NCBI GenBank assembly: GCA_945787995.1
Contig: CALZKI010000001.1
Coordinates: forward strand, 1-44,994
Reading direction: 5' to 3'
Source: an uncultured Lachnospiraceae bacterium
Lineage (GTDB): Bacteria; Bacillota; Clostridia; Lachnospirales; Lachnospiraceae
Length of the DNA: 44,994 nucleotides
Positions 5,030 through 5,233 of this stretch are shown here, one piece after another. The notes below the pieces were generated by a model that saw only the letters and a program-made list of their open reading frames with translations, searched no databases and was not told the origin of the DNA. How positions within the stretch are numbered: the first letter of the stretch is position 1; each line of letters starts with the position of its first letter. The position numbers and the translations under genes are program-made.

Positions 5030-5233
5030 TTATCTGAAATCATCAAGGCCCTGATCCAGAGTAGGAACACTGCATGCCAGTGGAGTACGGGAACAATCTG
5101 TGCATCCCATTGTCTGTACATTTTTGGATCCTTCCACCTTGTCATCAACGTCTACATTCACATGACCAACGCCGTTAGCCATACCGGAATCCAACATCTT
5201 AACAAGATCATCAATCATCTGTTTCTCATCCAT
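5030..5233 (-). CDS. 67-aa acidic protein resembling the N-terminal helix and strand of the glycyl-radical domain, with CxxC-x6-C and no Gly loop
   Basis: AAGGAG RBS 8 nt before [23 protein letters not shown] aligns without gaps to [20 protein letters not shown] of the next gene. Confidence 0.8.

Follow-up and report, generated by a model that had tools for sequence, protein, structure and literature searches.

The window analysed here, a stretch of 44,994 nucleotides from an uncultured Lachnospiraceae bacterium, carries a split PFL operon on its minus strand, in which the PFL body, a 67-aa third component (hereafter X), the free glycyl-radical subunit GrcA3 and the activating enzyme PflA are encoded in this order (Table 1). 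The body scored above the PFL cut-off (TIGR01255) while covering only profile positions 2-665; its end corresponds to about residue 680 of the E. coli enzyme, followed by a short conserved acidic tail, and it lacks the glycine loop. The grcA3 product, the counterpart of E. coli PFL 681-758, reached 157.7 bits against a cut-off of 158 (NCBIfam GrcA3, NF038360). We found the hallmarks of a PFL system in the neighbours of X, namely the Cys-Cys pair on the body, the RVSGY loop on GrcA3 and an activase above its cut-off. The X gene starts 59 nt past the pflB stop codon and ends 28 nt before the grcA3 ATG (5001), and the earlier note on this DNA, made from the letters and their open reading frames, was right that it has its own ribosome-binding site and is tightly packed in the operon. 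A Shine-Dalgarno-like motif (at least 3 nt, by a loose test) was present in 123 of 124 homologous X loci.

Table 1. Features of the split PFL operon (positions in the window)
Feature	Position	Strand	Basis or remark
X, 67-aa third component of the split PFL operon	5030..5233	-	ORF translation, homologs, selection
X docking copy, residues 3-30 (helix and last barrel strand of the radical subunit)	5144..5227	-	counterpart of about 681-709 in E. coli PFL; predicted to contact the PFL body
X cysteine arm, residues 44-64	5042..5104	-	homologous to the tails that end PFL bodies of the two-gene split form
X arm cysteines	C47 5095-5093; C54 5074-5072	-	
X Shine-Dalgarno AAGGAG	5242..5247	-	8 nt before the ATG
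hairpin of 10 bp between pflB and X	5255..5278		
pflB body, 679 aa	5293..7332	-	catalytic C406/C407 at 6117-6112
grcA3, 79-aa free glycyl-radical subunit	4762..5001	-	radical glycine G54 at 4842-4840; Shine-Dalgarno 5016-5010
pflA, PFL-activating radical SAM enzyme	3798..4586	-	TIGR02493 above cut-off
sigma70-like promoter 5' of pflB	7439..7468	-	11/12 consensus matches; the region's count is not above shuffles

Several further features were seen in and around the operon. The last residues of the pflB body (5296-5331, minus strand) form the acidic tail, which is conserved in X-bearing loci, and its alternating pattern resembles by eye the docking strand that X and GrcA3 have in common. Divergent from pflB (7644-7841, plus strand) is a gene for a DUF1858 / hybrid-cluster-associated redox disulfide protein, and a 2x[4Fe-4S] ferredoxin gene is convergent with pflA (3536-3706, plus strand). 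A promoter-like site matching 11/12 consensus positions lies antisense to X at the grcA3 start (4995-5022, plus strand), in a count of such sites that is not above shuffles.

The front half of X was compared with the radical subunit. As the earlier note had reported, residues 10-29 of X align without gaps to residues 10-29 of GrcA3 with 9/20 identities, and none of 500 shuffles equalled either the score or the 9 identities. A profile-profile comparison of X with the radical domain, which had been proposed as a check on this match, gave a probability of 88.5 and an E-value of 2.7e-6 over 32 columns. The NCBIfam GrcA3 profile matched X residues 4-32 (E 0.004), at 17.2 bits against its cut-off of 158, and the X-family profile retrieved GrcA3 and fused radical domains at E-values from 1e-7 to 9e-4. 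In Pfam, X itself had no match and PF01228 was matched weakly by 6 of 139 family members. X was correctly described as lacking RVSGY, and SGY is absent from all 150 distant representatives as well. The radical-domain positions kept in X are 7, 10, 11, 14, 15, 24, 26, 27 and 29, of which the helix contact positions 7, 10, 11, 14 and 15 are those common to X and 135 radical domains, while the invariant radical-domain residues Y17 and N28 are lost. Among the best 150 representatives (50% identity), D15 is conserved in 142/146, G23 in 137/148 and H24 in 139/147. On these alignments, X is a paralog of the radical domain without the radical, and by the known mechanism it cannot be a radical carrier.

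The second half of X, the cysteine arm, is conserved in a different manner. The CxxC-x6-C motif claimed for X is invariant in its close kin (79/79 unique sequences) and fails as a family motif, being present in 40/139 diverse members. In the best 150 representatives (50% identity), C44 is found in 50/144, C47 in 131/143, C54 in 138/142 and P57 in 142/142, so that CxxC was dropped as the family signature; C44 is limited to a clade, and the family core reads C47-x(4-7)-A-C54-x-[VI]-P57-T, followed by an acidic end. The claim of three conserved cysteines therefore does not hold beyond C47 and C54, which weakens the case for a self-contained metal or Fe-S site. Counted over 138 full-length representatives, two cysteines occur in 70, three in 49, four in 13 and one in 6, and two X genes (L140 and L142) end after CxxC and lack C54. 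The distance from H24 to C54 has a median of 30 residues (28-32 in 107/139 members), a spacing that may be biased by profile-based retrieval, and the same count of 30 separates the histidine from the radical glycine in GrcA3 and in E. coli PFL. We rejected sequence homology between the cysteine motif and the glycine loop, whose in-register likeness ranked 20 of 63.

We found that the arm resembles the cysteine tails that end the bodies of other split PFLs. A profile built from 16 such tails, which had been selected by a motif resembling X, placed X at the top of the genome's 23,270 ORFs (E 6e-4) and found 100/139 X-family members at E<1e-3. By this profile comparison, the X arm is shown to be homologous to the cysteine tails fused to other split PFL bodies.

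To judge whether X is a genuine gene, we examined its relatives, of which 435 were found among 602 candidate stretches in a genome scan. The best 80 of the 435, chosen by similarity and so favouring apparent conservation, had a split body upstream of X in 79/80 loci (the one exception is cut by a contig end) and a complete GrcA3 downstream in 77/80 (the misses lie at contig ends). Conservation and a low dN/dS had been named as the checks on X. Over 79 unique close homologs, we obtained a dN/dS of 0.09 overall, with 0.10 for the helix and strand, 0.58 for the linker and 0.04 for the cysteine arm, and both shifted frames were closed in 79/79. By pN/pS, GrcA3 stood at 0.054 versus 0.169 for X and 0.078 for the X arm. 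The family comprises 1,764 clusters at 90% identity, the ESM Atlas gave only clusters without a name, and X has neither a Pfam family nor a name. Judged by codon-level conservation, X is a real, selected and unnamed gene, widespread in one clade of gut Clostridia.

Transcription of the region was looked for in metatranscriptomes. Contigs in four assemblies from four studies bridge the end of pflB, X and the start of grcA3 with 0-5 differences, and the depth over the bridging region was 138, 33, 33 and 17, versus 55, 19, 7 and 3 in the highest bins of a 19.5-kb control stretch. This suggests that the X region is transcribed, a reading kept at that strength because the runs were selected for holding this region. 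One RNA contig skips 4965-5335, with 21 letters on the short side and in one of the four runs, and it fits a fused pflB of another organism; restoration of a full-length PFL by splicing or recoding was rejected, as no credible joint was found in the four RNA assemblies. A search of supplementary files from two small-protein proteomics papers for five short motifs of the X family and for 'glycyl radical' gave no match.

Among the anaerobes of gut and rumen, PFL belongs to the core enzymes of fermentation, and oxygen destroys it at the radical glycine. In 61 of the 151 sampled Lachnospiraceae-family genomes PFL is split, so that the fragile radical part forms a subunit of its own that can be replaced, and each of the 61 encodes either X or a cysteine-bearing tail; some of the sampled genomes are kin, and these counts are not independent. 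X was found in 42/151 genomes, the same 42 by single-sequence and by profile search, and it lies in the operon in 39 and elsewhere in 3. All 42 carry split PFL, while X occurred in 0/58 family genomes with only full-length PFL, so that the strict co-occurrence with split pflB proposed as a check was borne out in this sample. In the 19 split-PFL genomes without X, the body ends in a cysteine-containing acidic tail, with a clear motif in 10 and a weaker one in 9. Among 300 other genomes sampled across the class, 3 carried full X genes (2 of these genomes lie outside the family), and bodies with tails occurred in several families; a phylum-wide sample of 300 other genomes gave no X at E<=1e-7.

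A tree of 80 PFL cores placed every tailed and X-bearing form in one clade of 56 (SH-aLRT 98), within which the separate-gene and fused-tail states changed at least 10 times; this tree leaves out L209 and is midpoint-rooted, so the direction of change is not given. This pattern of fusion, in which the X arm is swapped onto the body, implies a physical association with the body, and repeated in-frame deletion of the front half of X would be the simpler route to the tailed bodies. Two full-length PFLs nested inside the split clade, L223:54-2351 (G132) and L224 (G080), were probably re-fused, and at its junction L223 retains an acidic insert rich in cysteine. Outside the clade, two split PFLs (L242 and L243, in G290 and G403) have neither a tail nor a neighbouring X, and apparently arose independently by a split at the same point. 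We also noted a rearranged operon in which the body is followed by pflA and then grcA3, with X elsewhere on the contig (L125, G068:C3:99200-101700), and two divergent stand-alone X paralogs that lie away from pfl genes and carry another C-terminal motif (L144:1961-2173 and L261:872-1114).

Structure prediction was employed to ask where X might bind. Modelled alone, X formed one helix (residues 3-19) and two short strands (26-28 and 38-40) with low confidence (pLDDT 63, pTM 0.33). When X was modelled together with the PFL body, the complex score was 0.78, compared with 0.01 for the best control, and the mark set for this score is reached by 116/157 solved complexes and by 2/215 mismatched pairs. 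The runs agreed in at least 38% of contacts and the partner pLDDT was at least 46, a level at which the partner fold is uncertain; the pass may reflect likeness to solved PFL. The confident predicted contacts join X 3-30 to body residues 364-394, 407-408 (C407/V408) and 639-640, while contacts with body strand 9 (653-658) lie outside the confident set and X residues 31-67, which hold the arm, had no confident placement. X residues 3-30 are thus predicted to dock on the PFL body. In the PFL barrel the fifth and tenth strands pair, and because of this pairing, and because the touching helix face is the one common to radical domains, the docking site is read as the seat of the radical subunit. 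We infer that the predicted site is the GrcA3 seat and that the two proteins alternate in it, a reading drawn from barrel topology and common residues rather than from superposition. The earlier proposal that X occupies the same slot as the active subunit thus agrees with the predicted docking through the mimic helix and strand, and its identification of the seat stands as our interpretation. Folding a tail-bearing body was abandoned as a way to locate the tail, as pLDDT was below 50 for residues 617-710; a fold search with this model returned only PFL and other glycyl radical enzymes.

We then compared X with known systems. Like X, GrcA/YfiD (TIGR04365, PDB 6OWR), GrcA2 (NF008341) and GrcA3 (NF038360) are small free proteins with the docking strand, whereas X lacks their glycine loop and C-terminal helix and has the cysteine arm instead. 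A radical-less copy of the last strand beside a spare-part protein also exists in oxygen-cleaved E. coli PFL as residues 696-733, a recognition element according to part of PMC8683613, in which PFL cut at 695 binds and activates YfiD poorly; that segment is a covalent damage remnant, whereas X has a gene of its own and bears a helix and a cysteine arm in addition. The small cysteine-containing partners of other glycyl radical enzymes (GREs), namely BSS beta/gamma, HPAD gamma and MASS beta/gamma/delta, are comparable in kind, some of them gating the radical domain (portions of PMC12358834 and PMC13450708). As described there, these subunits adopt HiPIP or rubredoxin folds with four metal ligands, sit outside the barrel and, unlike X, did not arise as paralogs of the radical domain; BSS beta and MASS delta have no likeness to X in sequence and, as far as the low-confidence model of X shows, a different fold. 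We place X outside the GrcA family and outside the known Fe-binding GRE subunit families. The statement that no GRE regulator of this kind had been described holds for a radical-domain paralog, but goes too far for regulation in general, as BSS beta and MASS delta gate the radical domain in the account excerpted from PMC12358834. A section of a 2026 review (PMC13450708) names small subunits only for HPAD, BSS and MASS, treats YfiD as a repair part and, within that section, makes no mention of natural PFL splits.

The PFL split itself is not wholly new, as NCBIfam names GrcA3 and PFL bodies without a radical domain, like the split body, are present in the PDB as chain A 'Formate acetyltransferase' of the recent entries 38LA and 38LB (687 and 739 aa). 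The former ends at the split point and could be an engineered truncation, and the latter runs on into a tail with at least two cysteines; both were absent from the GrcA3 search results and from the April 2026 structure copy, and no paper on either entry was found. Among the PDB sequences searched there was no X-like chain and no match to X or to a tail alone. A description of X or of the split operon was not found in the literature searched, a scope that most subscription papers and bioRxiv supplements fall outside.

Taken together, we propose, at a probability of roughly 0.4, that X is an exchangeable cap for the empty radical seat of the split PFL body. X would occupy the GrcA3 seat and so complete the barrel of a newly made or oxygen-damaged body, its front half serving as the address that brings the cysteine arm to the body; the arm, with C47 and C54, would extend into the space that the glycine loop has vacated and there protect the catalytic C406/C407 or reduce them, and the cap would stay until fresh GrcA3 is loaded and then activated by PflA. 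If X and GrcA3 compete for one seat, an arm function common to both architectures is simplest with the glycine loop out of the cavity, and an arm acting in that state favours the exchangeable cap. We also counted for it that damage to the C-terminus makes E. coli PFL susceptible to proteolysis, as stated in a passage of PMC8683613; against it, the two-gene split forms manage without the extra helix and strand of X. A stricter version, in which X mirrors the radical subunit but bears a thiol, takes the same seat, places its invariant cysteine (30 residues past the docking histidine, as the radical glycine is) in the glycine-loop cavity and quenches, stores or repairs active-site sulfur chemistry, is improbable; if it were true, alternation between a capped state and one loaded with the radical would be built into these PFLs.

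Some of the same observations could be explained by a loading or activation factor, in which X would give the body in trans the missing duplicate-strand recognition element (E. coli 696-733) and so help GrcA3 to bind and PflA to install the radical. In E. coli PFL that had been cut at 695, YfiD binding was undetectable by ITC and the radical was reduced 32-fold (a part of PMC8683613); the natural body ends near E. coli residue 680 and X copies 681-709, X is encoded just upstream of grcA3, and GrcA3 lacks the 60-residue N-terminal helper region of YfiD. However, 19 split genomes have the cysteine tail but not the additional helix and strand, cysteines are missing from the E. coli element, and X spans only part of 696-733, which leaves this role possible but doubtful. 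A redox-switched competitive inhibitor that blocks the seat and limits active PFL, with the redox state of C47-C54 setting its release, would suit the predicted seat common to X and GrcA3, the missing radical glycine and the conserved cysteine pair. We consider it unlikely, given that X shares the operon and shows no hint of being controlled separately, and that a body-fused arm needs no competing strand, yet repeatedly replaces X. The decoy role suggested earlier keeps its predicted seat but is incomplete in its pure form, because in other split PFLs the cysteine segment is carried on the enzyme body as a movable module. X might instead be an accessory subunit that carries a metal or Fe-S centre, in the manner of BSS beta or MASS delta; it would then bind alongside GrcA3 or PflA and gate the movement of the radical domain. 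The use of cysteines for iron and the gating by known small GRE subunits, the three cysteines as CxxC..C in 40/139 members and the acidic tails speak for it; the two family-wide cysteines, versus four ligands and HiPIP/rubredoxin folds in the known subunits, the missing PDB sequence match and the overlap of the predicted X site with the inferred GrcA3 seat make it equally hard to credit. Finally, X lies exactly at the split point and one RNA contig skips it, as might be expected of a non-functional duplication remnant, a mobile insert or an intron within pflB, but the dN/dS of 0.09, the freely varying spacer lengths around X (80 loci) and the 303 clusters at 50% identity stand against this, and codon-level selection refutes it, so that it is left with almost no weight.

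A reconstituted system of body, GrcA3, X and PflA would bear on the loading of the spare part and on the protection of the empty active site. [quoted passage not shown] Stand-alone grcA3 genes were seen as well. A second grcA3, encoding a 96% identical protein and having its own Shine-Dalgarno sequence, lies 3' of pyrB-pyrI (G000:C46:7306-7548, minus strand), and another is found in G148 (L257). Just 5' of the second grcA3 we noted a 13-bp palindrome (C46:7575), which occurs twice in the genome by pattern and which we take to resemble Fur/PerR boxes.
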